Shown piece by piece: positions 5,687 to 24,778 of a stretch of 30,929 bases of DNA. The notes beneath the pieces were generated by a model that searched no databases, was not told where the DNA came from, and was given only the letters and a program-made list of their open reading frames with translations. Made by a program: the position numbers and the translations under genes. Origin of the DNA: an uncultured Halieaceae bacterium (GTDB lineage Bacteria; Pseudomonadota; Gammaproteobacteria; Pseudomonadales; Halieaceae); assembly GCA_938045215.1 (NCBI GenBank), contig CALINF010000331.1, positions 1 to 30,929 of the forward strand, read 5' to 3'. How positions within the stretch are numbered: position 1 is the first letter of the stretch; each line of letters opens with the position of its first letter.

Positions 5687-7262
5687 TGCCATCATTTTGG
5701 GCGCGGGTCACAATGGACTGACAGCTGCAAACTATCTCGCCATCGGCGGGATGAAGGTGTGTGTTCTTGAGCAGCGTCACGTCGTCGGCGGCGCCGCCGT
5801 GAGTGAAGAATTCCACCCGGGCTACCGCAACTCACTCGCATCGTACGTTGTCAGCTTGTTACGCAGCGAAGTGGTTCGGGATCTAGAGCTGGAACGCTAT
5901 GGCTACGAGCCACTACTGCTGGAGAATTCGCTATACCTGAATTCTGGCGGTGACTACCTGCTGCTAAATGGTGACGAGGGTCATGACCGGGCAGAGTTCG
6001 GTCGCTTTTCCGCTAGCGACTACGATGCCATGCTCGCCTTCGAGGAAAGCGTCGACAAGGTTGGTGGCATACTTGCAAAACAGTGGTTGAAGACCCCGCC
6101 CAAGCTGCATGGTGGTGGGCTGAGCGACCTGTTGGAGAGCGTGAAGCTGGGCCTGGACGTACACCGCCTTGATAAGGACAGCCGCTGGAGGCTACTACAG
6201 TTTTTCATCGGCGCACCCCAGAGCATCATCGAGCGCTGGTTTGAGAGTGACAAGGTCAAGGCCATGGTTGCAGCGCACATTATGCCCGCCAACTATGCGC
6301 CCCTGACCCAGCCAGGCGCCAGCCTGGCAATGCTACACCACGCAGTCGGCGAGATAGCCGGACGCAAGGGCGCGTGGGGTCTGGTGAAGGGCGGAATGGG
6401 TACGATTACGCAGGCAATGGCGAATTCGGCACGAGACAAGGGCGTCACGATCCAGACCAATGCCGGGGTTGAGCAGATTCTCATCGAGGGCGGCGCGGTC
6501 TCAGGCGTGCGACTGGAAAATGGCGACACGATTCTCGCCCCGGTGGTGGCGGCCAACACCGATCCCAAGCGTACGTTCCTGACACTGGTGGGCGAGGAAC
6601 ACTTGCCCAGCGACTTTGTTCGCGACATCAGCGCGTTCCGCCAGGAATCTGCGTCTCTGCGTATGAATCTCGCACTCAGTGGGCTCCCTGATTTCAAGGC
6701 ACTGCCCTCTGCAGGCATCGGCCCCCAGCATCAAGCCAGCATCACGCTGATAGAGAGCATGCAGCACCTTGATGAGGCCTACTTGTCAGCGCGCTCCGGT
6801 ATACCTGCACAGCCACCAATCATTGAGGCCATTATTCCCAGCGCGGTCGACAACAGTCTCACTGACAAGCCAGGTACTCACGTGATGAGCCTGCTATGCA
6901 AATATATGCCATACGATCTGGCGAACGGTGAGCATTGGGACGCCAAGAAGCCCAGTGTGGTGCAGAATATCCTCGAGCATGTCACCCGCTTCATTCCGAA
7001 TCTTCCTGAGATATTAGTCCACACGCAATGCCTGACGCCGCTGGATATTGAGCGGCTGTTTGGTATGACGCGAGGTGATATCTGTCATGGACGTATGGAG
7101 CCGGATCAACTGTACAGCGCCCGCCCCCATCCGGATGCCGCGCAATATGCCACACCAATCGGCGGACTCTACCTGTGCGGTTCCGGCACTCACCCCGGGG
7201 GGGGTGTTACCGGTGCACCAGGCCACAACGCCGCTCGCCGTATCCTGAAGGACAGGCGCTAG
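5667..7262 (+). CDS. COG1233 phytoene dehydrogenase-like (PYROXD2-like) FAD oxidoreductase, copy A
   Basis: GAGHNGL Rossmann motif, VGGAAVSEEFHPG, LHHAVGE...GAWGLVKGGMG and C-terminal LYLCGSGTHPGGGVTGAPGHNAA. The start overlaps the upstream gene by 20 nt. Confidence 0.88.
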   Translation: MSHNQFDAIILGAGHNGLTAANYLAIGGMKVCVLEQRHVVGGAAVSEEFHPGYRNSLASYVVSLLRSEVVRDLELERYGYEPLLLENSLYLNSGGDYLLLNGDEGHDRAEFGRFSASDYDAMLAFEESVDKVGGILAKQWLKTPPKLHGGGLSDLLESVKLGLDVHRLDKDSRWRLLQFFIGAPQSIIERWFESDKVKAMVAAHIMPANYAPLTQPGASLAMLHHAVGEIAGRKGAWGLVKGGMGTITQAMANSARDKGVTIQTNAGVEQILIEGGAVSGVRLENGDTILAPVVAANTDPKRTFLTLVGEEHLPSDFVRDISAFRQESASLRMNLALSGLPDFKALPSAGIGPQHQASITLIESMQHLDEAYLSARSGIPAQPPIIEAIIPSAVDNSLTDKPGTHVMSLLCKYMPYDLANGEHWDAKKPSVVQNILEHVTRFIPNLPEILVHTQCLTPLDIERLFGMTRGDICHGRMEPDQLYSARPHPDAAQYATPIGGLYLCGSGTHPGGGVTGAPGHNAARRILKDRR

Positions 7263-7311
7263 CGCCCTGACTTGCCTTGGGTGGGGGGTTTCTACGCTAT
7301 TGCTTAGCCAG

Positions 7312-8892
7312 CTAACGATCCCTGAGTATGGCGTTGGCCGCATTATGTCCAGGCAGCCCACTGACGCCACCACCTGGATGAGCGCCAGAACCACACAGGT
7401 ACACGCCCTGCACTGGCATCTTGTACGCAGCGTGTCCTGGAATCGGTCGCAGAGAATAGAATTGGTCAAGGTGCAACGCGCCGTGGAAGATATCCCCGCC
7501 AACCATGTTCAGGTCCCGCTCAATATCCAGTGGCGTCTTTATCTGTCGCCCGACTATCGACGCTTTGAAGTTCGGTGCGTATTGATCAATGGTATCGACA
7601 ATGACGTCGGCCGCCTCATCACGAACATCATCCCAATTGCGACCATCCGGTAAATGGCGCTGAAAATGCTGACAGAACAGGCTGGCCACGTGGCCGCCCG
7701 GTGGCGCCAGCGAATCGTCCTGGGTTGATGGCACCTGCATGGATATCACTGGTTTGCGCGACCAGCCCAGTTGCCTTGCATCATAATAAGCGTTCTGGAT
7801 GTAACCTAGCGACGGACTGACTTCGATCGCGCCCATGAAGTGCTCTTCACCCCGACCCGCCATGCTCGTAAACCTGGGTAGCTCAGACAATGCCACATTC
7901 ATGCGAAAGGTCGCAGAGTGGCTTCGATAATTTTCGATTCTGCGTTGATCGGGTGGGTCGAGACTGTCGCTATCAAGAAGTTTTTGCAAGAGTATTTGTG
8001 GATGCACATTGGCCGCAACGAATCGCGATGTGAGCTCTCTGCCATCAGCAGTGAGCACACCACACGCCTTGCCATCGCGAGTCAGGATTTTGCTAACCGG
8101 CGAACTGGTTTCTATTCGGGCTCCCTTGCTGCGTACAAACGAGGCCATTGATTCACTGATCGCGCCCATGCCGCCTCTAGCAATACCCCAGGCGCCCGCG
8201 CGACCCTTAACCTCACCGAAAGCGTGGTGCAATAACACGTAGGCTGTACCAGCATGGTATGGCTCGGCAAAGTTCCCAATAACACCCTCCAGCCCCAGCA
8301 CACCCTTAAATGCTTCACCCTCAAACCAGGTGTCCAGGTAATCGCCAAGCGAGCGTGTCATCAGTTCCGCCAGCACCGTCTGGTGATGTTTGTCCAATTT
8401 ACGCAATAGGTTCCCGGCTTTAAGCAAACCGACCGCATCTCGCCAACCTCCACCAATATTGGGAGGCGACTGCACCGCCAGTTCGCGCAGCGCCATCGCC
8501 ACCGTCGCAATGCCAGAGTCGAATTCTTCCATGCGCTGGGCATCACGCCGGGAGAAGCGCGCCACCTCGGCGTGAGCCTGGGCATCATCGCGTGTCAATA
8601 ACAGATGGTCGTTTTCGAGCAAACTGAGCGTGCCTGCGGGTCGTTCAAGAATATCCAGCCCGTGCTGCTCCAGCTGCAGATCAGCAATGACCCGTGGATG
8701 CAGCAAGCTGACGGAGTACGAGTACACCGAGTTTCTAAAGCCCGGGTGAAATTCCTCCGTTACAGCGGCACCACCCACCACAGGTCGTGACTCCAGCATC
8801 AGAACCCGCAGTCCGGCACGCGCAAGGTAGCCAGCGCAGGTCAGTCCGTTGTGTCCTGCACCGATGACAATAACGTCGGCATCCATCGCCAT
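7312..8892 (-). CDS. COG1233 phytoene dehydrogenase-like (PYROXD2-like) FAD oxidoreductase, copy B
   Basis: GAGHNGL, VGGAAVTEEFHPG, LLHHAFGE...GAWGIARGGMG and YLCGSGAHPGGGVSGLPGHNAA. A GAGGGA SD precedes ATG 8892. Confidence 0.88.
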   Translation of the reverse strand: MAMDADVIVIGAGHNGLTCAGYLARAGLRVLMLESRPVVGGAAVTEEFHPGFRNSVYSYSVSLLHPRVIADLQLEQHGLDILERPAGTLSLLENDHLLLTRDDAQAHAEVARFSRRDAQRMEEFDSGIATVAMALRELAVQSPPNIGGGWRDAVGLLKAGNLLRKLDKHHQTVLAELMTRSLGDYLDTWFEGEAFKGVLGLEGVIGNFAEPYHAGTAYVLLHHAFGEVKGRAGAWGIARGGMGAISESMASFVRSKGARIETSSPVSKILTRDGKACGVLTADGRELTSRFVAANVHPQILLQKLLDSDSLDPPDQRRIENYRSHSATFRMNVALSELPRFTSMAGRGEEHFMGAIEVSPSLGYIQNAYYDARQLGWSRKPVISMQVPSTQDDSLAPPGGHVASLFCQHFQRHLPDGRNWDDVRDEAADVIVDTIDQYAPNFKASIVGRQIKTPLDIERDLNMVGGDIFHGALHLDQFYSLRPIPGHAAYKMPVQGVYLCGSGAHPGGGVSGLPGHNAANAILRDR

Positions 8893-8912
8893 AGAATCAT
8901 CCCTCACAGTAG

Positions 8913-9546: not shown

Positions 9547-10848
9547 CTAAAGAGCATCCTTGAGCTTGTACCAGCTCATCCCCAGCGCGAGACCGGGCCG
9601 GCGCAGGAGCTTACCTCCAGGGAATGGCCAATGTGGAATTCTGGCAAACACATTAAAACGTTCGGGTGAGCCGCTGATCATCTCGGCCATGATGCGGGCC
9701 ATGATGTGTGTGGGAGCCACCCCATGCCCCGAATAGGCCTGAATGTAGCTGACTCCTTCTGACAGGTGACCGAGCTGGGGCATACGATTGATACCGATAC
9801 CAATCTGCCCACTCCAGCCATAGTCGACCTGAGCATCTTGCAGTTCGGGAAATACCTTATGCATCTTGCGGGACAGGACGCCCACCACGTCGCTGGGTTC
9901 AAGTCCGGAATAGTTCGATAAGCCACCAAACAACATGCGCTTGTCGGCGGACAGGCGAAAATAATCAAGCGCCGTTCGTGGATCACAAACGGCCACATCA
10001 CCCGGTAGAATTTTCTGCGCCAGGTTATCAGGCAAGGGGGCGGTGGCAATAACCGAACTGCTGGAGGGCAACACGCGACTGGCAAGGCGACTGACCAAAC
10101 CCCCGAGATACGCATTGCCACACAAAATCACCTTGCGTGCAGTGATGCTGCCGCGCTCCGTGACTACACGAGGCCTGGGCCCCTGCACCAGGTTCAGCAC
10201 CCTGGATTGCTCAAAAATTCTGGTGCCTAGCCGCTCCGCGGCCCTCGCCTCGCCAATGCAGAGATTCAGCGGATGAATATGCCCATTGGCGTAATTGAGC
10301 AATCCTCCGAGATACTGCTGCGAGCTCACAAACTGTTTCAGCTCATCCTTGTCCAGCAGTGTGTATTCGTGTGTATTGCCGATCGACTTTTCAAAGTCCT
10401 TCCACTGGGCAAACGCCGTCATATGCCGAGGCTTCAATGCGACATCGCAGTATCCCCATTTCAGGTCGCAATCGATTTCATACTTCTCAACACGCTCGGC
10501 AATAATGTCGCGTGCCTCCAGACCCATCTGATAAATCGCCCGCACGCCCTCTTCGCCGATGTGTTTGGTGAATCGCTCAGGATCGTGACCAATACCACCT
10601 ATGATCTGTCCGCCATTGCGGCCGGTGGCGCCCCAACTGATCCGATTCGCCTCCAACAACGCCACGTCTATCCCGCGCTCGGCTAATTCAAGGGCTGTAT
10701 TGACGCCACTAAACCCACCACCTACAACCACCACATCAGCGTCGATATCCTCTTCCAGAGTGGGGTAGTCGGTCTGCCAGTTAGCGGTAGCAGCGTAAAA
10801 GGAGCAGGTATGCTCTTGAGTTTCAGACGGACTCTTTAGTCCCAGCAT
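9547..10848 (-). CDS. puuB: Gamma-glutamylputrescine oxidase-like FAD oxidoreductase (PuuB/PauB, DAO family)
   Basis: SFYAATAN, VVVVGGGFSG, GATGRNGGQ, GHIHPLNL, DYFRLSADKRMLFGG and YSGHGV. A strong GGAGG SD precedes ATG 10848. Confidence 0.85.
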   Translation of the reverse strand: MLGLKSPSETQEHTCSFYAATANWQTDYPTLEEDIDADVVVVGGGFSGVNTALELAERGIDVALLEANRISWGATGRNGGQIIGGIGHDPERFTKHIGEEGVRAIYQMGLEARDIIAERVEKYEIDCDLKWGYCDVALKPRHMTAFAQWKDFEKSIGNTHEYTLLDKDELKQFVSSQQYLGGLLNYANGHIHPLNLCIGEARAAERLGTRIFEQSRVLNLVQGPRPRVVTERGSITARKVILCGNAYLGGLVSRLASRVLPSSSSVIATAPLPDNLAQKILPGDVAVCDPRTALDYFRLSADKRMLFGGLSNYSGLEPSDVVGVLSRKMHKVFPELQDAQVDYGWSGQIGIGINRMPQLGHLSEGVSYIQAYSGHGVAPTHIMARIMAEMISGSPERFNVFARIPHWPFPGGKLLRRPGLALGMSWYKLKDAL

Positions 10849-10933
10849 TGAATTCCTCCAAGAAAAACTTTCACTAACTAACACGACAACAACAGCGGAA
10901 AACTGCCGGAATAGCTGCGTTCGATATTGAGCC

Positions 10934-10948: not shown

Positions 10949-11078
10949 CGTCAAACCTGTGCACGTTGGCACTGCACTCCCGCCCTATACGTCAGGTAGA
11001 CGAGCGTTCACAGAGCAGATTAGCTATTCTTGTTTAACGCACGCCATGAAGACAACACAGGATGGAAAGGTTCAACTG

Positions 11079-12464
11079 ATGAAGATCGCCCCGCAATCTG
11101 AGCTAGAGCATTTTTTGCAATCGCACCCTGATGTTCAAATGCTGGAACTACTCATGCCGGACATCAATGGCATTCTGCGCTGCAAACGCATACACCGACG
11201 CGAATTCGACAGTTTATTCGATCGCAGTTTCAAGGCCCCGCTGAGCGTCCCACTACTTGGCATAATGGGTGAGTTGTACGATGAGGACCTATCTCACGAC
11301 CTGCTGGCGGGCGATCCCGATCAACTCCTGTTGCCAATTACAGGATCGCTGGCAACGATACCCTGGCTGGAATCGTCCACGGCTCAGGTCTTGGGTGGGT
11401 TTGCGGATATGGATTTGCAACCATCATGGACCGATCCTAGAAACGTACTGGCCAACGTGCTGGATCAATACACCAGCAGGCAACTAAAGCCGGTGGTCGC
11501 AACGGAGCTGGAGTTCTATCTACTGGCTAACAACAGCGACTCGGTCCCCTCCCCCCTTATGGGTGAGATACCGGGCACCGATCTCAAACAACAGGGCATA
11601 CAGTACTGCATGGCAGACGATCTGTTTGAATGCGACGCATTCCTGGATGACGTTAGAAAAGCCTGCGAGACTCAGAATGTACCCCTGACTGCCATACACT
11701 CGGAGTTCTCCGCAGGTCAGTGGGAAATTAATACCCATCATACAGACGATCCTGTGACGGCCTGCGACCACGCCGTATTGTTGAAACGCATCGTCAAAGG
11801 CGTTGCGCGCAAACACGGCTTTGGAGCTACCTTCATGGCTAAGCCCTTCGATGAATCCGCCGGCAGCGGTCTACACATTCATGCCAGCGTTTACGGTAGC
11901 GATGGCCGTAACATCTTCGCCGAGCTAAGCGGTGAATCGTCTACGGTTGTCTCAGACACGCTTCTGCATGCGATTGGAGGTCTGAGCGATACTCTGAGTG
12001 AGTCGATGGCAATCTTCGCGCCAAACGCAAACTCGTACCGCCGTTTCAAGGCTGGCGCTTTTGCCCCTTCCTCCCATACCTGGGGCCACAACCACCGGGA
12101 GGTGGCATTGCGTATACCCGTATCGTCGCCGGATAATCGGCGGATTGAACACCGGGTCGCGGGAGCAGATGCCAACCCTTACCTTGTAATGGCTGCAGTA
12201 CTGGCGGGCCTACTCCATGGTATGAGCAACAAGCTGGACCCCGGAGCGCCAATACCCAGCGGTGCCGATCTGTCTAATTCGCAAGTCACGCTGCCGCGTC
12301 GATGGGATGAAGCGCTCGCGCTGTTTAGAAGCAGCACAATACTGCCGGAGTATCTGGGTAAAACCTACTGCGACACCTTTGCCGCACTGCGCCAGGGTGA
12401 GTGTAACGACTATCATGGCCGCGTTTCCAACCTCGACTATGAGTGGTATCTCAGAGCACTGTAG
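11079..12464 (+). CDS. puuA: Glutamine synthetase-like gamma-glutamyl-polyamine synthetase (PuuA/PauA), copy 1
   Basis: PDINGILRCK, ATELEFY, EFSAGQWEIN, GSGLHIH, NANSYRR and RIEHRVAGADANPY. The GS-I YEAP flap is replaced by AFAP...TWG. Divergent from puuB. Confidence 0.85.
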   Translation: MKIAPQSELEHFLQSHPDVQMLELLMPDINGILRCKRIHRREFDSLFDRSFKAPLSVPLLGIMGELYDEDLSHDLLAGDPDQLLLPITGSLATIPWLESSTAQVLGGFADMDLQPSWTDPRNVLANVLDQYTSRQLKPVVATELEFYLLANNSDSVPSPLMGEIPGTDLKQQGIQYCMADDLFECDAFLDDVRKACETQNVPLTAIHSEFSAGQWEINTHHTDDPVTACDHAVLLKRIVKGVARKHGFGATFMAKPFDESAGSGLHIHASVYGSDGRNIFAELSGESSTVVSDTLLHAIGGLSDTLSESMAIFAPNANSYRRFKAGAFAPSSHTWGHNHREVALRIPVSSPDNRRIEHRVAGADANPYLVMAAVLAGLLHGMSNKLDPGAPIPSGADLSNSQVTLPRRWDEALALFRSSTILPEYLGKTYCDTFAALRQGECNDYHGRVSNLDYEWYLRAL

Positions 12465-12482: not shown

Positions 12483-13253
12483 CTAGGCGGAAAATTTTTC
12501 CTGGGAACGGCGGTAGTGCGCAGGTGTTTGACCCGTCGCCTTTTTGAACGCAGCGTAAAACGTTGATGTCGAGTTAAAACCCACCTGTAGCGCTACGTCG
12601 AGGATCGATGCGGTTTCATTTCCGCCCAAGGCCAGTATTCGTGTGGCTTCCGCCACCCGATGGCGATTCACAAAGTCAAAGAATGAAACACCGTGCCCTT
12701 CGTTGATTGCCTGCGATAGATGGTTAACTGAACAACCCAACATAGCTGCGAGCTGGGGCAGCGACAAGTGCGAATCCAGATACACCCTATCCTCGTTCAT
12801 CGCTTCCGACAAACGCACTGTGACCGCCCTCAAGCCCGATGCACTGAGCCCCGACTTTGCGTATCGCTTGCCATGAGAGGAGCCTGCGGTAACACGACCT
12901 ATAAGCTGCGGCTCTCGATAGTAGTCCTCGATTTTTAGCGCGCTATCCCCGTCCATGGTGATGAACTCCGCGCCGATCCAACCTGTTGCGGGATCCTCAT
13001 CTCCCTCCGGAGATGCTCGATACTGAAACGCGATAGTGGACTCTCCTGCAAGCACCTCTCCTACCAACGTGTAGCAATGGTTATCCTGACGAAAATACTC
13101 CTGAAGATGGCTGACCAGCTCATCTCGTGCGAGCAGCTGCTGGGAAGGAATATCGAAATAGGTGCCTCCTCGAGAGAGATGATCGGCGACCTGTTTAGGA
13201 TCATGCCGATTCCAGGCATCGAAGTAGCTTTCCACAAAATCAGAGGTCAACAT
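12483..13253 (-). CDS. AraC family regulator with an N-terminal SnoaL/NTF2-like domain
   Basis: N-terminal FVESYFDAWNRHD...YFDIP is SnoaL-like. C-terminal LSLPQLAAMLGCSVNHLSQAIN, FFDFVNRHRV and ILDVALQVGFNSTSTFYAAFKKATGQTP form the AraC double HTH. Confidence 0.85.
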   Translation of the reverse strand: MLTSDFVESYFDAWNRHDPKQVADHLSRGGTYFDIPSQQLLARDELVSHLQEYFRQDNHCYTLVGEVLAGESTIAFQYRASPEGDEDPATGWIGAEFITMDGDSALKIEDYYREPQLIGRVTAGSSHGKRYAKSGLSASGLRAVTVRLSEAMNEDRVYLDSHLSLPQLAAMLGCSVNHLSQAINEGHGVSFFDFVNRHRVAEATRILALGGNETASILDVALQVGFNSTSTFYAAFKKATGQTPAHYRRSQEKFSA

Positions 13254-13300
13254 CTGCAACAGACCCTACCAACAGTACAATAGACTACATTGAATACCAT
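13247..13300 (-). CDS. Possible 17-aa leader peptide (MVFNVVYCTVGRVCCRC) overlapping the regulator start codon
   Basis: AGGAGG (13314-13309) lies 8 nt before ATG 13300. The stop TGA (13249-13247) overlaps ATG TTG A of the AraC gene by 7 nt. Confidence 0.3.
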   Translation of the reverse strand: MVFNVVYCTVGRVCCRC

Positions 13301-13306
13301 ATACCT

Positions 13307-13406
13307 CCCCTCCTGTCATGAACGGCGAAGCGCGAAGACGATCATGCTGTACCGCAATTACCAACCAATGCCTGTAGGCATGGAAGCGCAATCGGTGACA
13401 GAGGGG
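13307..13406. other. Predicted structured RNA element in the araC / membrane-protein divergent region
   Basis: Outer arms CCCCTCCTGTCA (13307-13318) and TGACAGAGGGG (13396-13406) pair with one bulge. Inner hairpin ATGCCT-GT-AGGCAT at 13368-13381. Confidence 0.3.
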
Positions 13407-13448
13407 TTATGTTAGTCTCACGCATTCGACAGCCGACAAGCCTTTGCT

Positions 13449-14306
13449 ATGAGCCACCACCCTACCGACACAGCCATGGCCCAACGAGCGGGGTTTGATC
13501 CACGGCAGTTGATCAAGGTCGTTGTGTACGGCCTGCTGCTCGTAAACTTTGGTCTTTATCTTGTCGAAGATATAGCGATATCTGCTCATACGCTTCGCAA
13601 CGGCGGGACATGGCTGGACTATACGGCTGCTTTTGCGGTGTCTCTGGATGTACTTGCATGGCTTACTCTTCTGGCTCTGTTCGAACTTGAAACCTACCTG
13701 CTTTCTGACGACGCCTTTACACCTCGCAGAATAAAGGCGATGCACGGCATCAGAATTGTCTGCTACCTGTTTCTTGCACACACCCTGCTAGCTTACGCGA
13801 ATGCTGGCAAGGATCTCATAGGTCTGACTCCGATACAGGAGACAGATAGCCTGTGTCAGCTGGTGGGGCGCGACATTTCTTTTGGTTTTAATCTGGAGTA
13901 CACCGAGCTGAATCTGGAAAACTGCATCGAGTTATCCCGTGCGACAGAGTTCTACTTAATCGAGAACGACTCGGTGGTGACCGATGCGCAAGGGCTGCAG
14001 ATAGAGAGGGAGCTTGTCTGGCTGGATCTGGTTGAAGCTGTTACCTGGCTGGTGATCCTGCTTTGCATGGAGGTCATCGTGCGCTTGCAGGATCGCGGGA
14101 CAACTCGCGGCGTGCTGATTCGCAGTGCCAGCGGGATCAAACTCTTCCTCTACCTGTTGCTGTGGGGCGCGGCGGCTTACTGGATTTACCGGGGGCATTA
14201 TATGTATGCCTGGGATGAAGCGCTGTGGATTCTCGGCTTCTTCGCTATCGAGATGAATATCTCGGACTGGAAGAAAGAAATTCGAAGTGCTGACGCAGCG
14301 CCCTAG
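13449..14306 (+). CDS. Hypothetical 6-TM membrane protein with three internal two-helix repeats
   Basis: Three [K/R]xxxYxxL helices alternate with three [D/E]xxxWx7E helices. A large loop contains two Cys (136 and 159). Alternative start at 13476. Confidence 0.8.
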   Translation: MSHHPTDTAMAQRAGFDPRQLIKVVVYGLLLVNFGLYLVEDIAISAHTLRNGGTWLDYTAAFAVSLDVLAWLTLLALFELETYLLSDDAFTPRRIKAMHGIRIVCYLFLAHTLLAYANAGKDLIGLTPIQETDSLCQLVGRDISFGFNLEYTELNLENCIELSRATEFYLIENDSVVTDAQGLQIERELVWLDLVEAVTWLVILLCMEVIVRLQDRGTTRGVLIRSASGIKLFLYLLLWGAAAYWIYRGHYMYAWDEALWILGFFAIEMNISDWKKEIRSADAAP

Positions 14307-15514
14307 AACGCCGGTGGTGGTGTTGCGCGCGCCCTGGCCGGTGCCCAGAAGGGCTTATCCTTGACCTCACAGCGTGCAACCTTGCGATAATACCGCAGCT
14401 CTTTTTGATAGTAGATCTCTGCCCAAATCTCACGATCCAGCATCGATGTCTCGACCATGGCAAGCGCGATGTTCGCCTTGACAGAGGGAGACCACATGGC
14501 TGATGTGATATAGCCAATCTCTTTACTACACCGTTTACCGCTGTACAGAATCGCCCCCTCTGCAGGTTTGTTGCCCTCGATATCCAGTTTCGTAAGCGTG
14601 TATCTGGGGCCCCGATCGCGCTCCTCCAGCAGGGCGCGGCGTCCATTAAAATGCGGCTTTTTGAAATCCACCAACCAGCCCAGATTCAGCTCGAACGGCG
14701 TCTGGTCGTGCTGAAAATGAATGGTCTTTAACGCCTCGGAAAATTCCATATCCGGCATAATAAAGCCAGCTTCCAGTCGAGCCATATTGGTCGCCGCTTC
14801 CCCATAGGGGTGTATCCCGTGATGCTCGCCCGCTGCGTAAAGTGCATCCCACATCGCTATTGCCTGAGACGGGTCTATCCACAGCTCGTAACCTAAGTCA
14901 CCCGTAAAGCCTGTGCGTGAAACCATCAGCGACGCGTCGTTGAAAGGGAAATGCATCACGCCAAACGGCTTCAGGTTTTCGATACCATCGAGACCCATGG
15001 TCAGCAATGTGGCGCAGGACGTGGGGCCCTGCAAAGACAGTGCCGCATAGCGCTCTGTCATATCTTCGACTGACAGATCATCAAACCCCAGACAGCTCTT
15101 GCGCAGCCAGGCCAGGCACGGACTCCCACAGGTCAGCATGAAACGATCCTCGCCAAGCCTGAAGATTGTTCCGTCATCAACCATGCGGCCTTCATCGGTA
15201 CACCAGCAAACGTAGGTGACCCTGTCGACTTTCAACTTGGACACGTCCCGTGTAACCATGCGATCCAGCATGGCAACTGCATCCGGCCCACTGATCATAT
15301 ATTTCTGCATGGGGCAGATGCCGTAGGTGGCACAGGTATTTCTGATGCAGAAATATTCGTACTCGGCATCGTAATAGTAATCGGCAAACTTAAACCCGTT
15401 CCACGAGGACCACGCATCGCGCAGGTTCATCGGTGCCTGGCGCTCATGAAAATGCGAGTGCTTTAGTCGCTCCCCCGCAAACGGATCATTGTGGGCGATG
15501 GCTTCACTCGTCAT
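14303..15514 (-). CDS. Stand-alone GcvT-like aminomethyltransferase (folate-binding) family protein
   Basis: GRMVDDGTIFRL, ALSLQGP, SRTGFTGDLGYELW, ARLEAG, FNGRRAL and IGYITSAMWSP. GAGG SD lies 9 nt before ATG 15514 (alternative start 15523). It overlaps the upstream stop. Confidence 0.87.
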   Translation of the reverse strand: MTSEAIAHNDPFAGERLKHSHFHERQAPMNLRDAWSSWNGFKFADYYYDAEYEYFCIRNTCATYGICPMQKYMISGPDAVAMLDRMVTRDVSKLKVDRVTYVCWCTDEGRMVDDGTIFRLGEDRFMLTCGSPCLAWLRKSCLGFDDLSVEDMTERYAALSLQGPTSCATLLTMGLDGIENLKPFGVMHFPFNDASLMVSRTGFTGDLGYELWIDPSQAIAMWDALYAAGEHHGIHPYGEAATNMARLEAGFIMPDMEFSEALKTIHFQHDQTPFELNLGWLVDFKKPHFNGRRALLEERDRGPRYTLTKLDIEGNKPAEGAILYSGKRCSKEIGYITSAMWSPSVKANIALAMVETSMLDREIWAEIYYQKELRYYRKVARCEVKDKPFWAPARARATPPPAF

Positions 15515-17123
15515 AGCAATCATCCTCAGGTACGGTGTTGGGCCGCTTCAGGTCGATCAGGATCTCGCGTGCCGCATTGGCGCCGCACGCGGAAGAGACG
15601 CCGCCTCCGGGGTGGGTTGATGATCCACACATATACATATTTTTTAGGGGCATTCTGTATTGCCCGTAGCCCGGGAAAGGGCGGTTGAAAAGCAGTTGAT
15701 CAATCGTAAGCTCTCCCTGAAAAATATTGCCCTCTGTCAGCCCTATCTCGTTCTCAATTTCGTGAGGGGTGCGCACTTCCATGTGAACAATGAGGTCTTT
15801 GAACCCCGGGCTATAGCGCTCGAGTTTATCAATGACCGTTTGCCCAAACTGATCCCGTTTCTCGGGTGTCCAGGGTCCATCAGCAAGCTCGGGTGGGCAG
15901 TACTGGACAAAATTGGACATCCAGTGCTTACCGACAGGCGCCACGGTGGGATCCCAAGCCGAAGGAATAATCGATTCAATAAAAGGATCGTCAGACCAGC
16001 GGCCGCGCTTCCAGCAATCGTACGCTCGCTCCATGGTTTCCAGTGAACCTGCAAAACCCTGCCCGCCGCGGTTGATGTAGCGATTGTCGGGCACATTGTT
16101 AAACTTCGGCATCCCAGACAACGCAATATTCACTTTGCCCGATGAGCCACGGATCTTGAAGTTTTTGGCTCGCTCGAAGATGCCCGGCGGCAGGTCCTTC
16201 TTGTCCATCACCTTGGTAAAGGTACGACGCGCATCCAGGTTCGATACGACGATACCAGCGTGAACCTCTTCGCCACTCTCCAGTGCCACTCCCACAGCCT
16301 TGCCATCTTCAACCAAAATCTGTTGAACCCCGGCCCCGGTACGTATCTCTCCGCCTTCAGCCTGTAATGCACTAGCCAGCGCGTTTGAAATTGCGCCCAT
16401 ACCACCGCGAGCCAAACCCCAGGCACCCACGTTGCCATCCACGTCGCCCATGACGTGGTGCAACAGAATATAGGCGGAACCCGGTGAATACACGCCCAGC
16501 GCAGTTCCAATGATGCCAGGACTGGCCATAGCGGCCTTAATCAGGTCGCTCTCAAAGTATTCATCCAGAAACTCAGCAGCACTCATCGTGAAAAAACGCA
16601 CATACTCATAGAGTTCTCGTTCACCCAAAGACCAGAACTCTTTGGCCAGAAACAACATCTCACGGATATCGCGCGGCTTGAATGAACTAGGATCCGGGGG
16701 CGTTCGCATCAACGTCTTGCGGATCAGCTGTGCATAGCGCCCCAGGTCTGCCTGAAAGCGCATCATAGAGTCTGCATCGTGCGGTGAATGCCGTCTCAAT
16801 TCCAGATAGCTGGCTTCGGCATCTGGATAATCTATGAGTGTCTCGCCGCTGTCGCTAAAAGTTACTGTGCCCAGGTAAGGCACCAGAAGCAGACCATGTC
16901 GGGTAAGATCAAGATCGCGATGAATGCTTTGACGCATCATGCTGCACACATAGGAACAGCTGGAGTAGAACCATCCATCGTGCATCTCGCGGGTGACCGC
17001 CGCGCCACCGATGTAGTCGTTCTTCTCTACCACCACCACGTCCAAACCGGCTTTTGCCAGGTATGCGGCATTGGTCAAGCCGTTGTGACCAGCGCCAACA
17101 ACGATGGCATCGTACTGTTTCAT
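15504..17123 (-). CDS. COG1233 (PYROXD2-like) FAD oxidoreductase, copy C
   Basis: GAGHNGL, IGGAAVT, YILLHHVMGD...GAWGLARGGMG, TEGNIFQGEL and YMCGSSTHPGGGVS. Confidence 0.9.
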   Translation of the reverse strand: MKQYDAIVVGAGHNGLTNAAYLAKAGLDVVVVEKNDYIGGAAVTREMHDGWFYSSCSYVCSMMRQSIHRDLDLTRHGLLLVPYLGTVTFSDSGETLIDYPDAEASYLELRRHSPHDADSMMRFQADLGRYAQLIRKTLMRTPPDPSSFKPRDIREMLFLAKEFWSLGERELYEYVRFFTMSAAEFLDEYFESDLIKAAMASPGIIGTALGVYSPGSAYILLHHVMGDVDGNVGAWGLARGGMGAISNALASALQAEGGEIRTGAGVQQILVEDGKAVGVALESGEEVHAGIVVSNLDARRTFTKVMDKKDLPPGIFERAKNFKIRGSSGKVNIALSGMPKFNNVPDNRYINRGGQGFAGSLETMERAYDCWKRGRWSDDPFIESIIPSAWDPTVAPVGKHWMSNFVQYCPPELADGPWTPEKRDQFGQTVIDKLERYSPGFKDLIVHMEVRTPHEIENEIGLTEGNIFQGELTIDQLLFNRPFPGYGQYRMPLKNMYMCGSSTHPGGGVSSACGANAAREILIDLKRPNTVPEDDCYDE

Positions 17124-18664
17124 TTGAGTATCTCGTGGGCTGCGTTGAAGCCGGGGCCGCCCATCAAGCCGCCACCCGGGTGGCTACCCGCGCCACAGAG
17201 ATACAGACCCGGAATCGGGGTGCCGTATTGGGCCGCCTCATAGGTAGGACGCATCATCAGCAGCTGATCAACGGCAAACTCGGTATGGTGCCAATGGCCA
17301 CCGGTCACATGGTGAAGCGACTCCAGGTCATGGGGCGTCAGGAGTTCCGCGTGCAGGACAAGCTCCCTCAGACCCGGCGCATGGCGCTCCAGGGTTGTGA
17401 GCAACCGTTCCAGCAAGGCCGAGCGGGCCGCGTCTGTCCAGCCGCCTTTCGGTGAAGCGGGGACATACATTACATTTGCTGACAGCACATGCTGACCGGC
17501 GGGCGCCATCGACGCATCCTGTAATGAGGGAATCACCAACTCCATTACCGGGTTCTCCGACGCAGCACCGTATTTGGCATCGTCGAACGCAAACTCCAGC
17601 GCGTCCGGCTCTGAGGCGATGATCATGCGTCCGTCCGGACGATCCACGCCGACGAACGAAGGGACATCGCCAAGTGCAAGATGGAGCTTGGCCACATAGC
17701 CCTCACAGCGCAGTCGCTGGATACGATTGGCGAACTCTATTTCCAGATACCTTGCCCCAACCAGTTGCAAGAATGTGCGCTGTGGATCGGCGCAGGAGAC
17801 AATTCTGGTGGCCGTGATCTTCTCGCCGTCGGCCAGCTCTACTCCGGTTGCCTGCTGGCCATCCTCGCTCTGCGAGATGCATATCTTTGTGACCGGGGCA
17901 TTAAGGCGCACCTGCGCGCCCGCAGCAGTGGCTGCGTTGAGCAGTGCATTGATGAGCCCCTCTATGCCCGTGCCGGGAATAGCATGCCCACCGTTATGAT
18001 CTCCCAACATTCGATACAACAGCGCAAAGACCGCGCTGTTGGGTGAGCGCGGCGCCAGCTTTGACCCCACAAGTCCATCCCAGCTCAGAGCGGCCTGGAG
18101 GTGTTTGTTGTCGAAGTATTCATCCATAAGATCGCGCATCGGCAATGTGGCGACCCGAAGGAACTCGAGCATGTCTTCCTTGCCCAGCCTTCGCAGGCGC
18201 AATCCCAACTGCCCGAACGTCAACATCTCTCCCGGGCTGTTGTTGCCAATGCGCGGCATTGTCTTCATCCAAAAGGGTTCAAGCGCGCGCGCGAACTTTT
18301 GCATCGCTGCGCGGTACCTTAGATAGCTGCTCTTATCATCATCCGAGACCCCGGTTACGCCGTCTACACCTATGACGACGTGCTCACCATCCAGGTTCAG
18401 CCCTATCGTGGGCAGCGGCGCGATAGCGGGTTGATAGCCATGCGATTGGAGCTGCAGATCTTCTACAACCCTGGGAGAAAAGTGGCTGATAGTGTGAGCA
18501 ACAGATGCCTTGAAACCCGGATGAAACTCACGGGCAGATGCAAGGCCACCAGGCGCAGCCGAAGCTTCCAGAACCAGCACGCGTTGACCCTGTTTGGCCA
18601 GGTAGGCCGCACAGATCAGTCCGTTGTGACCTGCGCCGATTACGATTGTGTCGTAGCTATTCAC
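17120..18664 (-). CDS. COG1233 FAD oxidoreductase, copy D (divergent partner of copy C)
   Basis: GAGHNGL, PGGLASAREFHPG, TGGHWHH and LYLCGAGSHPGGG. GTG start. Its stop overlaps the start of copy C by 4 nt (ATGA). Confidence 0.88.
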   Translation of the reverse strand: MNSYDTIVIGAGHNGLICAAYLAKQGQRVLVLEASAAPGGLASAREFHPGFKASVAHTISHFSPRVVEDLQLQSHGYQPAIAPLPTIGLNLDGEHVVIGVDGVTGVSDDDKSSYLRYRAAMQKFARALEPFWMKTMPRIGNNSPGEMLTFGQLGLRLRRLGKEDMLEFLRVATLPMRDLMDEYFDNKHLQAALSWDGLVGSKLAPRSPNSAVFALLYRMLGDHNGGHAIPGTGIEGLINALLNAATAAGAQVRLNAPVTKICISQSEDGQQATGVELADGEKITATRIVSCADPQRTFLQLVGARYLEIEFANRIQRLRCEGYVAKLHLALGDVPSFVGVDRPDGRMIIASEPDALEFAFDDAKYGAASENPVMELVIPSLQDASMAPAGQHVLSANVMYVPASPKGGWTDAARSALLERLLTTLERHAPGLRELVLHAELLTPHDLESLHHVTGGHWHHTEFAVDQLLMMRPTYEAAQYGTPIPGLYLCGAGSHPGGGLMGGPGFNAAHEILK

Positions 18665-18755: not shown

Positions 18756-20798
18756 TCAGCAGACCGCTTGAACATCTACCGTACAATCGTAATAGCACGC
18801 GCCACCCGCCATATCGGCTTTGTGCCCCGGTATCAACGCATTGATCGTCTGACCCGTAGCACTCTCTACAAGCCAGGCGCCCTTGGGAACAAATACGGTG
18901 CCGGTACGGACACTGTCGGATATCGCAAGCGGCATCCTGACTTCGCCCTGATCATTGAAGAGACTCACTTCTTCACCATGAGACAACGCGAGGCTCGCCG
19001 CGTCCACGGGGTGCATCTCGCACACAATATCGCTCTTGTGATCCGCAAGCCCCCCGAACGTCGAGTTGATACGTCGCTCCGATGCCGGACTCACGAGAAC
19101 GAATTGTCGTGCTGCCTCAAGCTCGCGATAACGGGGCAGACCGAGCCCAGCCTCCGCCTCCAGGGCCTCACTGTATAGCTCAATTTTGCCACTGGGCGTC
19201 GCGGGCGATACTCCACGTAGCAAGCCCGGAGTAGTTATCGCTGACATATCTATTGCGCTATCAAGAGGGAGCCTACTAGGTTGCCGTCCATCAAGACCAG
19301 GGGTGGCTGCATTTACGGCTTGATCCATCAACTGTTCATCTGTATCGGTGAAGCACTCGTCCTTGAATCCGAAGCGGGTAGCGAGGCGGCGGAATATCTC
19401 CATATTGGGCAGCGCGTTCCCAAGCGGATCCAGCACGGGGGCGCTGCGCTGCAAATAGTGATGACCATAGGCCTTGTAGAGATCGCCGTATTCCAGGTGT
19501 GTGGCCGCTGGCAGGATTACGTCGGCGCAGGCCATTGAATCGGTCATGCTCACATCACAACCCACCACGAATACATCTTCGTCGAGCAAAGCCGCCCGCA
19601 TATCATCCTGGCGCGGATGTACCGCGATCGGATTGTGATTGTAGATAAACACCCCTTTGAGTGGCACTTCGCTGCCGGGGTCAAGGATATGCCGGGGCAG
19701 GTCCAGCACATTAAACTGACGCACATCAGCCGGGGCCAGGTCGGGGCGCTCAAGCGCATCATGGTCAATCGGAAAGTAGCCGGAGACATCACAGACGCCT
19801 GCCCCTTGCATGCCAAAGTTTCCTGTCAGCGCGGGCAGCGCAAACAGCGCACGCAGGCCAGAGCCCCCGTTGCGATTGCGCTCGGGGGCCACGCCTACGG
19901 AAATTGCCGCAGGCGACAGTTCCTGCCACCATTTGGCGAACTGCTCTATGTCTTCCACTGCCAGGCCGCAGATAGCGGCTGCCCGCTGTGGAGAATAGTT
20001 CGCTGCCTCAGCGAGAAACTGCTCTGCCCCGCTGACATGGCTCTCGATAAAGGCCTCGTCCAGTCCGCCGCGCCTGTTAAGGAGAGCTGCCACCGCATAG
20101 GCCAACACTACATCAGTGCCTGGCATGACCGGCAAATGGAGATCGGCCTCCTGAGCGATGCGTGTACGCTTCGGATCTACTACCACCAGCTTTGCGCCCT
20201 GTTTCTGAGCGTCACGCAATAGCGTCGTTAGATGCAAATTGCAGGCAGTGATGTTGTTACCCCATACGACAATCAAGCGAGAGTGTTGCAGCTCTGTGAA
20301 GGAAATACCGCCTACGTCGCCAAACACACTGTCCCACGCGGCGCTGGAGACACCCGCGCACAGAGGCGAAGAGTCGACCGCGCTCGCACCCAGGCGATGA
20401 AAAAAACGCTTGTCCATGGAACCGCCAGCGAGCAACCCCATGGGGCCACCATAGCTTAGGGGCGCTATCGCCTCGGCACCGTACTCCTCAATGATTGCCG
20501 CAAAGCGCTGATGCACAACGTCCAACGCCTCTTCCCATGACACGCGTCGGTATGCTCCGCCGCCTTTGGGGCCGCTGCGCAACAGTGGCTGGGTCAGGCG
20601 CTGCTCGCCGTGTACTTGCAGCGGTAAACCTTGTGCCACCTTCGCGCAGATTTTCCCTCGAGTGAACGGGTTTGCCTGACTTCCGCGAACTTTCTGTACC
20701 TTGCCATCAGCCACTTCAATCGACAGACTGCAGGTATCGGCACAATCTAAAGGGCAAATACTGGGGTGGCTTGTAAGGGGTGATTCAACCGATGCCAT
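18756..20798 (-). CDS. Mo/W-bisPGD molybdopterin oxidoreductase with N-terminal 4Fe-4S cluster (uncharacterised MopB subfamily)
   Basis: CPLDCADTC...GKICAK iron-sulfur motif, LVVVDPKRT, PGTDVVLA, ADVILPAATHLE, SGKIELYS and a C-terminal molydopterin-binding domain (EMHPVDA...NDQGEV). No Tat signal. AGGAG SD. Confidence 0.88.
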   Translation of the reverse strand: MASVESPLTSHPSICPLDCADTCSLSIEVADGKVQKVRGSQANPFTRGKICAKVAQGLPLQVHGEQRLTQPLLRSGPKGGGAYRRVSWEEALDVVHQRFAAIIEEYGAEAIAPLSYGGPMGLLAGGSMDKRFFHRLGASAVDSSPLCAGVSSAAWDSVFGDVGGISFTELQHSRLIVVWGNNITACNLHLTTLLRDAQKQGAKLVVVDPKRTRIAQEADLHLPVMPGTDVVLAYAVAALLNRRGGLDEAFIESHVSGAEQFLAEAANYSPQRAAAICGLAVEDIEQFAKWWQELSPAAISVGVAPERNRNGGSGLRALFALPALTGNFGMQGAGVCDVSGYFPIDHDALERPDLAPADVRQFNVLDLPRHILDPGSEVPLKGVFIYNHNPIAVHPRQDDMRAALLDEDVFVVGCDVSMTDSMACADVILPAATHLEYGDLYKAYGHHYLQRSAPVLDPLGNALPNMEIFRRLATRFGFKDECFTDTDEQLMDQAVNAATPGLDGRQPSRLPLDSAIDMSAITTPGLLRGVSPATPSGKIELYSEALEAEAGLGLPRYRELEAARQFVLVSPASERRINSTFGGLADHKSDIVCEMHPVDAASLALSHGEEVSLFNDQGEVRMPLAISDSVRTGTVFVPKGAWLVESATGQTINALIPGHKADMAGGACYYDCTVDVQAVC

Positions 20799-20834
20799 TG
20801 CTAACTGACTCCTGTATTTAACACCAAGGCCGAT

Positions 20835-21773
20835 TCAGTCGGTGCCGATACGACTGGCACGCATATACAGAAACTGCAGCGCCAATGTAGCGGCTGCCAG
20901 CGAGGTAATATCGGCGTGATCGTAAGCTGGAGACACCTCCACCACGTCAAAGCCCACGATATTCAAATCGGCTATACCCTGTAGTATACGCAATGCTTTT
21001 GACGTGCTCAGCCCACCAACGACCGGCGTACCTGTACCCGGCGCGTAGGCCGGGTCCAGACCGTCTATGTCAAAGGTCAGGTAAGTGGGCGTGTCGCCCA
21101 CCCGATTGCGTATGCGCGCTACTATTTGCTCAACAGACAACTCATTGGCGGCGTGCCCATCAATAACCTCAAACGGATGATCCGGCTTATCGTAGTCGGT
21201 GCGAATGCCTACTTGAATGGTCTTGTCGGCGTCTATCAGGCCCTCACGTGGCGCGTGGTAGAACATGCAGCCGTGATTGTATTTTTGCTCCTCCTCGTAG
21301 GAGTCGGTATGGGCATCGAAGTGAATCATCGCCATGGTGCCATGGCTAGCCGCATGGCCACGCAGCAGGGGCAAGGTTACGAAGTGGTCGCCTCCGAAAG
21401 TGATCAGGGTCTTGCCCGCACCGGTGATCATGGCGGCGTGTTCCTCTACTTGAACCAGCATGTCTTCGCTGTCGCCCCAGAGAAAATCGATGTCGCCGTA
21501 GTCAATCGCTTGCAACCTGTCGGGTAGGGCAAAGTCCCAGGGCCAGCGATTCTCTTCCCAACGCAGGTTCGCACTGGCCTGGCGTATGCCATTGGGTCCA
21601 AAACGGGCGCCGGAGCGACCGCTGGTACCCAGATCATAGGGAACACCCATTACTGCCGCGCCGATATCGTCATCTGACAGATCGCGACTAATTGGCAGTC
21701 CCATAAAACTGAAAATATTCGCGTACATGCCCCGGTCACTCAGCGGCGATGCGCCCTTTGCTTGTTGGCTCAT
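20835..21773 (-). CDS. speB: Agmatinase (ureohydrolase family)
   Basis: GVPYDLGTSGRSGARFGPNGIR, GGDHFVT, HFDAHTD, TFDIDGLDPAYAPGTGTP and DVVEVSPAYD. Confidence 0.9.
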   Translation of the reverse strand: MSQQAKGASPLSDRGMYANIFSFMGLPISRDLSDDDIGAAVMGVPYDLGTSGRSGARFGPNGIRQASANLRWEENRWPWDFALPDRLQAIDYGDIDFLWGDSEDMLVQVEEHAAMITGAGKTLITFGGDHFVTLPLLRGHAASHGTMAMIHFDAHTDSYEEEQKYNHGCMFYHAPREGLIDADKTIQVGIRTDYDKPDHPFEVIDGHAANELSVEQIVARIRNRVGDTPTYLTFDIDGLDPAYAPGTGTPVVGGLSTSKALRILQGIADLNIVGFDVVEVSPAYDHADITSLAAATLALQFLYMRASRIGTD

Positions 21774-21827
21774 CAATCCGTCCTCAACATAATCCTGCTA
21801 TTAAAAAGCTGCCACTGAAGTTTGCTA

Positions 21828-23177: not shown

Positions 23178-23219
23178 AGTGAATTCCTTAGCTGTTGTTA
23201 TGGTCTGGGTGCCCAAAAC

Positions 23220-23308
23220 ACCACTTTAGGGGTAATTCGTACCCTCGGGGTCTGTGCCACACTATTAAACATTGCAACATAACACCCAACCATACCACTT
23301 CGGGGTAG
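23220..23308. promoter_or_regulatory. Three related ACC(A)C-TT(C/T)-GGGGT elements in the puuA2/spuC divergent region
   Basis: ACCACTTTAGGGGTA (23220-23234), TACCCTCGGGGT (23240-23251) and TACCACTTCGGGGTA (23293-23307). Confidence 0.35.
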
Positions 23309-23362
23309 TACATCCGGAGTGTAGCCGCTCAGCGCGGCTTTCACACATCAGAGGTACATGGC

Positions 23363-24733: not shown

Positions 24734-24735
24734 CT

Positions 24736-24763
24736 AAAAGCCCGGCCCAGTGCCGGGCTTTTT
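24736..24763 (+). terminator. Rho-independent terminator-like hairpin, potentially bidirectional
   Basis: AAAAGCCCGGC-CCAGT-GCCGGGCTTTT-T: GC-rich stem with a 5-T tail on the plus strand and a 4-A run on the other side. Confidence 0.75.
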
Positions 24764-24778
24764 CATGGATAGCAGCGT

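Follow-up and report, generated by a model that had tools for sequence, protein, structure and literature searches.

The locus described here raises a simple question: what does a membrane protein with no characterized relative do among genes for amine catabolism? The protein, P0001, is encoded on the forward strand, at 13449..14306, of a 30,929-nucleotide stretch of DNA from an uncultured Halieaceae bacterium (contig CALINF010000331.1); we refer to this whole stretch as the window. The open reading frame (ORF) is stop free and its translation has 285 amino acids. A first-pass annotation, made from the sequence alone, had suggested that the protein binds polyamines or other cations. From its sequence, its covariation, and its gene neighbors, we predict that P0001 is a channel or carrier of a new, pseudo-threefold kind whose substrate is a cationic amine, and we give this reading a probability of about 0.4.

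Three two-helix repeats

The motif [DE]x3Wx7E occurs exactly three times in P0001, at D67/W71/E79, E196/W200/E208, and D256/W260/E268. A second motif, [KR]x3Y, also occurs exactly three times (K23/Y27, R102/Y106, and K231/Y235), and each copy opens the helix that precedes a [DE]x3Wx7E helix. Both patterns had been noticed in the first-pass annotation. Every residue that it named, including C136 and C159, is present in the translation; the triple spacing is exact; and a [KR]x3Y helix does lie ahead of each motif, at 23, 102, and 231. When the sequence of P0001 was shuffled 20,000 times, three copies of [DE]x3Wx7E were never seen, two copies were seen in 23 shuffles, and one copy in 1,145.

An AlphaFold2 model that was built with 31 relatives (predicted local distance difference test score, 86.6; predicted TM-score, 0.81) has six long helices, at residues 18-48, 55-84, 92-122, 180-215, 222-247, and 251-283. 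The hydropathy of the sequence is consistent with these helices, in agreement with the six transmembrane helices proposed earlier. We number them H1 to H6. Based on the modeled helices, repeat 1 is at residues 18-86 (13500..13706) and comprises H1, with K23-x3-Y27 and N33, and H2, with D67-x3-W71-x7-E79-x-E81-T82. Repeat 2 is split by an insert: H3, with R102-x3-Y106, is at residues 92-122 (13722..13814), and H4, with D193 and E196-x3-W200-x7-E208, is at residues 180-215 (13986..14093). Repeat 3 is at residues 222-283 (14112..14297) and comprises H5, with K231-x3-Y235 and W245, and H6, with D256-E257-x2-W260-x7-E268-x-N270. All of these segments are on the forward strand.

BLASTP gave no alignment between the repeat segments. 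Because BLASTP is blind to the repeat, profiles were needed to detect it. We compared profiles to each other with hhalign; these profiles, and all of the conservation counts below, are from 98 diverse members of the family. Repeat 1 aligned to repeat 2 (with the insert removed) across 71 columns with E = 1.6e-6, and in a register that matches K23 to R102, Y27 to Y106, D67 to E196, W71 to W200, and E79 to E208. When all of the helix profiles were compared to each other, odd-numbered helices matched odd-numbered helices with scores of 11.2-18.0 and even-numbered helices matched even-numbered helices with scores of 13.5-23.1. All nine odd-even pairs scored 4.8-7.8, and 15 controls with reversed profiles scored 4.5-9.6. 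The helix-by-helix comparison and the alignment of repeats 1 and 2 confirm that the similarity of the three repeats, which had been proposed by eye, is beyond chance: judging from these profiles, P0001 is a threefold repeat of a two-helix unit.

Conserved residues

Most of the motif residues are nearly invariant. In H1, K23 is present in 98/98 members and Y27 in 92. In H2, D67 is conserved in 95/98, W71 in 97, E79 in 97, E81 in 93, and T82 in 94. H3 is more variable, with R102 in 69/98 (and lysine in 5 more) and Y106 in 77. In H4, W200 is invariant (98/98) and E208 is present in 74 members; position 196 is asparagine in 67, glutamate in 25, and aspartate in 6, so it is always polar. In H5, K231 is conserved in 78/98, Y235 in 96, and W245 in 94. 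Finally, in H6, D256 and W260 are each present in 98/98, E268 in 91, and N270 in 96. Five of the six carboxylate positions and all three tryptophans are under strong constraint. Conservation of all six carboxylates had been expected; this was true for D67, E79, E208, D256, and E268, but not for position 196, because of the 67 members with asparagine. None of the histidines at 47, 99, 111, and 250 is conserved in more than 39 of the 98 members.

Position 196 distinguishes two subfamilies. In a mean-field direct coupling analysis (DCA) of 358 non-identical sequences (effective number of sequences, 251), positions 196 and 257 covary (rank 20): they are E/E in 194 sequences and N/A in 136, and mixed pairs are rare. 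The glutamate at 196 that had been reported is therefore correct for P0001, but it is not typical of the family; together with E257, it marks the window's subfamily. The signature of the window's clade is Y37, H111, T112, A115, E196, A254, E257, G263, and A266, while in the other clade these nine positions are, in order, F, Y, A, G, N, F, A, A, and F. The residues by which the subfamilies differ are along H3, H4, and H6. Proteins of the window's clade have two additional carboxylates, more polar groups, and, on H6, smaller side chains (A254, G263, and A266). We infer from these substitutions that the window's clade would have a larger and more acidic interior.

Packing of the helices

The top-ranked pair in the DCA was R102-E208 (z of about 9.5). 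E208 is present in 69 of the 74 sequences with arginine or lysine at position 102 and in about 5 of the 24 without. This covariation supports a salt bridge within repeat 2. By symmetry, K23-E79 and K231-E268 would form the equivalent salt bridges in the other two repeats; these pairs are not open to covariation because they are too invariant.

The top 140 couplings form a closed ring around the six helices (H1-H2, 7; H2-H3, 8; H3-H4, 11; H4-H5, 6; H5-H6, 7; and H6-H1, 8). The cross couplings in this set include nine between even helices versus two between odd helices, and mean conservation is higher for the even helices (0.61-0.70) than for the odd ones (0.52-0.57). A conserved face is clear in H1, H4, H5, and H6 (p = 0.001 for each); for H3, p = 0.067, and H2 has no significant variable face. 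D67, W71, W200, D256, and W260 deviate from the conserved face of their own helix by about 30 degrees or less, and E196 deviates by about 63 degrees. E79, E208, and E268 are rotated off the conserved face by 57-109 degrees, toward the neighboring odd helix.

Together, the covariation and the periodicity of conservation suggest a picture in which the even, motif-bearing helices are inside and the odd helices surround them, with Asp/Asn and Trp pointing inward and the glutamates stapling each hairpin to its lysine or arginine. If the acidic residues of the motif are to bind a cation, they should not face lipid, and D67, D256, and the three tryptophans do lie near the conserved face rather than on the variable, lipid-facing side. 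In contrast, the idea that the last glutamate of each motif is a free ligand is not supported. E208 covaries with R102, and all three glutamates are at the cytoplasmic end, beside the lysine or arginine of their own repeat. E79, E208, and E268 look like hairpin-stapling or gating salt bridges instead.

The insert and the topology

The insert within repeat 2 (residues 123-179; 13815..13985, forward strand) is modeled as four short strands and two short helices and is mostly beta. It contains 14 aspartates and glutamates versus 4 lysines and arginines. C136 and C159 are each invariant (98/98) and probably form a disulfide. An insert of about 75 residues with two cysteines had been described; the cysteine pair stands, but in the AlphaFold2 model the insert is just 57 or so residues long.

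There are 12 lysines and arginines in the 71 residues that we assigned to the cytoplasm versus 6 in the 90 residues that we assigned to the periplasm. Because of this bias, the acidic insert, and the invariant cysteine pair, a topology with both termini in the cytoplasm, and with the insert and its probable disulfide in the periplasm, fits P0001. The odd helices would then run outward from the cytoplasm and the even helices would run inward. In this orientation, D67, E196, and D256 would sit in the outer portion of the membrane, with the tryptophans one turn deeper; E79, E208, and E268 would reach the cytoplasmic boundary, at the same depth as K23, R102, and K231.

Linkage to a flavoprotein and GcvT-like cassette

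Next to the gene for P0001, on the reverse strand, are three genes that we refer to as the cassette. The first (14303..15523) encodes a GcvT-like folate-dependent aminomethyltransferase or demethylase (Pfam GCV_T, 1.3e-54). This gene and the membrane-protein gene run toward each other and overlap at their stop codons; the GcvT-like product also matches, below the cut-off, the C-terminal part of the NCBIfam model for trimethylamine N-oxide demethylase. The other two genes encode flavin amine-oxidase/CrtI-like proteins of 539 amino acids (AO539; 15504..17123; Pfam Amino_oxidase, 4.8e-17) and 514 amino acids (AO514; 17120..18664; Pfam Amino_oxidase, 7.4e-20). On the other side, a SnoaL-like/AraC-family regulator (12483..13259, reverse strand; Pfam HTH_18, 2.8e-20; SnoaL_2, 2.1e-7) is divergent from the membrane-protein gene. 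The 189-bp region between them (13260..13448) had no sigma-70-like promoter that a simple scan could find. Beyond the regulator is a glutamine-synthetase-like gene of the gamma-glutamyl-amine synthetase type (10959..12464, forward strand; Pfam Gln-synt_C, 2.3e-96); its product matches NCBIfam's gamma-glutamylputrescine synthetase with 2.1e-61, which is below the cut-off.

We counted homologs of these genes within 6 kb on either side of the membrane-protein gene in 80 genome loci from the window's clade (E196/E257). The GcvT-like gene was found at 63 of the 80 loci, AO514 at 59, AO539 at 56, and the AraC-SnoaL regulator at 38. Thus, the divergent pairing with the regulator that had been emphasized is correct for the window, but it holds at fewer than half of the loci, and the cassette is the stronger association. 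The gene order varies. In Halieaceae, the membrane-protein gene is convergent with the cassette; in Porticoccaceae, it is co-directional with and immediately upstream of the cassette, often with a paralogous cassette on each side (at gaps of 30 and 88 nucleotides); and in Woeseiaceae, it is downstream. That the linkage is kept across three gene orders and orientations argues for a functional tie. Among sampled genomes, the membrane protein is present in 15 of the 18 with an AO539-family gene versus 13 of the 183 without, although related genomes are not independent. The cassette adjoins E-type proteins in 56 of 64 well-flanked loci versus N/A-type proteins in 7 of 22.

The other subfamily has different neighbors. 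At 80 metagenome loci of the N/A clade, the membrane-protein gene is behind a glutamine-synthetase-like gene in 23 and near DAO-type oxidoreductases in 18. Genes for Fic, QueC/QueE, MtnA, and FTHFS also occur at N/A-clade loci, but these are probably plain synteny. A distant member of the family (26-28% identity to P0001) is the first gene of a co-directional run, followed by a PuuD-like peptidase C26 and a glutamine-synthetase-like gene, and another member is at the end of a run comprising an APC permease, an arginase-family gene, a sulfotransferase-like gene, and a DAO gene. Overall, an association with amine catabolism is supported in several independent clades.

A family with no characterized relative

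Neither Pfam nor NCBIfam has a match for P0001, and these databases gave nothing consistent for a paralog from the same genome, for a minimal form of the protein (both described below), or for the 98 relatives. A profile search against the sequences in the Protein Data Bank (PDB) gave a single chance match, to SATB1 (E = 0.74). We searched for similar folds with Foldseek (against the PDB, AlphaFold database clusters, and the ESM Atlas) and with VIA, which does not depend on Foldseek, using both full-length and minimal models, and found only unnamed members of the same family and generic three- or six-helix bundles. A feature search of the ESM Atlas returned only unnamed clusters, and we did not find any paper about the family. 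The minimal form's best full-length fold likeness was to cytochrome b561 (Foldseek TM-score, 0.44; E = 0.33), and it matched the N-terminal six-helix bundle of CAP with a VIA Z score of 9.6 over 159 residues. Like P0001, these two are up-and-down bundles with nearest-neighbor connections, although CAP is soluble, and scores of this size are expected even for unrelated helical bundles. The protein had been called uncharacterized, and these searches of Pfam, NCBIfam, PDB profiles, Foldseek, and VIA agree. We rate the family as new at the level of both protein family and architecture, and as outside every family that we tested.

By analogy, P0001 would work most like a small pseudo-symmetric carrier or channel. 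The closest parallel is the SLC25 family of mitochondrial carriers, which also have six transmembrane helices in three tandem two-helix repeats, pseudo-threefold symmetry, conserved charged residues at one membrane face that form salt bridges, and both termini on the same side. By the definition of three tandem repeats with two transmembrane helices each, P0001 has the repeat structure of SLC25. However, it does not belong to that family (PF00153). A regular-expression search did not find the signatures PX[DE]XX[KR] (carried by odd helices in SLC25) and [FY][DE]XX[KR] (carried by even helices), neither P0001 nor the 98 relatives match Pfam's Mito_carr, and no carrier was among the PDB matches from Foldseek or VIA. 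Also, the repeats of P0001 are about 65 amino acids long and lack the matrix helix, its family is bacterial, and the salt bridge indicated by covariation (R102-E208) is within a repeat, not between repeats. A 2026 preprint reportedly proposes that bacterial CysZ and YihY are relatives of mitochondrial carriers; these are different proteins from P0001. To our knowledge, mitochondrial carriers are the only other proteins with a tripartite two-helix repeat, so an unrelated bacterial example bears on the origin of pseudo-symmetric membrane proteins.

The trimeric channels P2X and ASIC/ENaC are another parallel. In these, two-helix units that run in, out, and back in are arranged with threefold symmetry, with the second helix inside and with an extracellular, cysteine-containing domain between the two helices of a unit. 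In P0001 the units are instead fused into one chain of 285 amino acids with a single ectodomain of about 57 residues, and neither sequence nor fold matched these channels.

Several other families were considered and rejected. SMR proteins such as EmrE (PF00893) have about 110 amino acids, four helices, and a glutamate in helix 1, while P0001 has 285 amino acids, six helices, and no match in Pfam or NCBIfam; EmrE is also a four-helix dual-topology dimer. PotD and PotF are soluble periplasmic binding proteins with a two-lobe fold, while P0001 is an integral membrane helical bundle without a sequence match to solved structures. Amt/Mep/Rh transporters (PF00909) have eleven helices, and P0001 has six and no Pfam match. 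Finally, the cytochrome b561/ferric-reductase type does not fit, as four heme-ligand histidines are not conserved and the fold similarity reaches a TM-score of only 0.44.

Proposed function and alternatives

How might P0001 handle an amine? We propose that it would be a six-helix bundle in the inner membrane, made up of three tandem hairpins. In each hairpin, the odd helix would start at the cytoplasmic face with K/R-x3-Y, and the even helix would enter from the periplasm with D/N/E-x3-W and end at the cytoplasmic face with a glutamate. This glutamate would pair with the lysine or arginine of its own repeat, as covariation suggests for R102-E208 and as symmetry suggests for K23-E79 and K231-E268. 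The even helices would be more buried, and their Asp/Asn/Glu and Trp residues would face the interior in the outer half of the membrane, where they could form a putative pseudo-threefold acidic and aromatic site for a cation. The disulfide-bonded beta insert of repeat 2 would cap the periplasmic side. A cationic amine would enter through a channel or through a carrier that is driven by the membrane potential. The window's subfamily, with the extra E196 and E257 and the small A254, G263, and A266, would feed the two flavoproteins and the GcvT-like protein of the cassette, and the paralogous N196/A257 subfamily would serve gamma-glutamylation (Puu-like) pathways for amines. Recognition of organic cations by a carboxylate and a tryptophan is established chemistry in other proteins, including EmrE and other SMR proteins and PotD; for P0001, it is an analogy only.

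We are more doubtful about a bolder version of this proposal, in which P0001 would found a new bacterial superfamily of six-helix carriers or channels with pseudo-threefold symmetry, as an independent parallel, in prokaryotes, to the mitochondrial carriers. In that version, a ring of Asp/Asn/Glu and Trp would bind a polyamine or a methylated amine, three K/R-Glu pairs would form a salt-bridge gate on the cytoplasmic side, and positions 196, 257, 254, 263, and 266 would set the specificity for the amine.

Several points weigh against an amine channel or carrier. The depth of the DCA is modest (effective number of sequences, 251), and D67, D256, and the three tryptophans are nearly invariant and give almost no covariation signal; the central placement of the carboxylates comes from covariation and the periodicity of conservation. 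The contrasts between the subfamilies are confounded with phylogeny. The window already contains an APC-family permease. As a monomer, a compact six-helix bundle may not have a permeation path. Lastly, the relatives without the insert, and some of those with it, are found among plsB/MerR, beta-lactamase-family, CoA transferase, and endonuclease I genes, which argues for a more general role.

Such a role is the alternative that survives best, although we consider it unlikely. P0001 could be a general channel or carrier for an inorganic cation or ammonium (for instance, Mg2+, Ca2+, K+, or NH4+), and in amine-catabolic islands it would handle the released ammonium or balance charge. The forms of about 200 amino acids keep the full motif despite their unrelated neighborhoods, and most of the family has a D/N/D layer and a bulky phenylalanine on H6, which suggests a small site; the conserved layers of carboxylates and tryptophans would also suit a small cation. 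However, the linkage to amine catabolism recurs across several clades and gene orders, and the changes that are specific to the cassette-linked clade would enlarge and acidify the site.

It is less probable still that P0001 is a membrane partner of the flavoproteins (AO514/AO539 or the DAO type), as an anchor, a site of quinone reduction, or an assembly factor. Flavin oxidoreductases are the most common neighbors across clades, the co-occurrence with the AO539 family is strong, and the fold most like the minimal form is that of cytochrome b561, a six-helix redox protein (TM-score, 0.44). But at E = 0.33, this amounts to no match, and heme binding is unlikely because no histidine is conserved. 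Furthermore, 13 genomes that encode the protein lack an AO539-family gene, flavoproteins are not among the neighbors of the minimal forms, and the cytoplasmic loops are very short for docking.

We also give little weight to an intramembrane enzyme with catalytic Asp, Glu, Tyr, or Lys, such as a hydrolase or transferase whose substrate would be a lipid or an amine conjugate. Invariant polar residues are unusually dense in the membrane (K23, Y27, N33, D67, E79, E81, T82, D256, E268, and N270), and the top Foldseek matches of the full-length model, which were weak, were to UbiA-type prenyltransferases (probability, 0.47; TM-score, 0.22). Against this, the polar residues are spread with threefold symmetry, which is typical of pores and carriers and not of a single active site, and no enzyme family matched by sequence or fold. 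Finally, it is very improbable that P0001 senses amine in the periplasm and signals its presence across the membrane to the SnoaL-AraC regulator: in the window, 189 bp separate the two divergent genes, homologs of the regulator occur at 38/80 loci, and the periplasmic insert could bind a ligand, but over half of the loci lack the regulator, it is often not a direct neighbor, it has a ligand-type domain of its own, the paralog and distant members lack such a regulator, and P0001 has loops of just 5-20 residues and no cytoplasmic signaling domain.

If P0001 and its relatives are transporters, then they would be a new family and architecture for moving cationic amines across bacterial membranes. 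They would also help to explain how the substrate of the cassette enters the cell and hence help to identify that substrate. The family is found in the OM60/NOR5, SAR92, and Woeseiaceae groups, marine heterotrophs that are abundant and that recycle dissolved organic nitrogen.

Distribution of the family and other observations

A word-indexed search found 478 homologs among 90% clusters, and an exhaustive search with HMMER found 456 clusters at 50% identity, nearly all of 275-295 amino acids. In addition, one metagenomic pattern scan gave more than 600 matches. The named carriers include Halioglobus, Halieaceae, Oceanicoccus, Porticoccaceae/SAR92, Woeseiaceae, OM182, Colwellia, Microbulbifer, and others. 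Among cultured bacteria, Congregibacter variabilis IMCC43200, Luminiphilus syltensis NOR5-1B, Oceanicoccus sagamiensis, and Microbulbifer species carry the gene. Among sampled genomes, the family is present in 4 of 400 from the class (including the window's genome), in 28 of 201 from the order, and in all 4 other genomes from the window's family. Genomes that have it carry one to three copies. Minimal forms of about 200 amino acids, without the insert and its cysteine pair, are found in Thiocapsa, Arcobacteraceae/Campylobacterales, Thioalkalivibrionaceae, and Sandarakinorhabdus. These (for example, L012:1189-1800 from genome G101) keep all three K/RxxxY and D/NxxxWx7E elements.

We propose to define the family as proteins of about 200-290 amino acids in which [KR]x3Y helices and [DNE]x3Wx7E helices alternate, three of each, with E-x-E-T at the end of helix 2 and E-x-N at the end of helix 6. 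P0001, the paralog from its own genome, and the minimal form all have these features. The family needs a name of its own: most members are labeled "hypothetical" in the databases, and a few are labeled "shikimate kinase" or "CDP-diglyceride synthetase," which look like mis-transfers.

The paralog is on another contig of the window's genome (C157; L009:1116-1961, forward strand). It has 281 amino acids, is of the N196/A257 type, and has the same motif pattern as P0001. It begins 22 nucleotides past a glutamine-synthetase-like gene. Further downstream, on the opposite strand, is a partial ORF which, by eye, we take to resemble shikimate kinase; the "shikimate kinase" label may have arisen because of this ORF.

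The window as a whole is an amine-catabolic island (5661-8907, 15504-18664, 9547-10884, and 18756-26149). It includes four CrtI/amine-oxidase-like flavoproteins, a DAO-type oxidoreductase, two glutamine-synthetase-like genes, an arginase-family gene, a molybdopterin oxidoreductase that looks cytoplasmic, a class-III aminotransferase, and the APC permease. A second uncharacterized protein of the island, of 310 amino acids (4754-5686, forward strand), has no Pfam match at E <= 1e-5; the end of its ORF slightly overlaps the beginning of a flavin amine-oxidase-like gene (5661-7262).

In genomes of the Porticoccaceae/SAR92 type, the AO514/AO539/GcvT cassette is duplicated around a single membrane-protein gene (L032, L033, L045-L049, L058, L072, and L084), where the upstream copy is diverged (about 40-62% identity) and the downstream copy is close (about 63-85%). 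We searched the literature on PYROXD2 and found nothing about the linked cassette. In genome G499 (1.8 Mb), each of the two copies of the membrane-protein gene (C48:53168-53989 and C70:3500-4312) has one in-frame stop codon (TAA and TAG, respectively), so these may be pseudogenes or assembly errors. At three other loci (L030, L052, and L090), two copies of the gene are side by side, in tandem or inverted, and at L090 an arginase-family gene lies between them.

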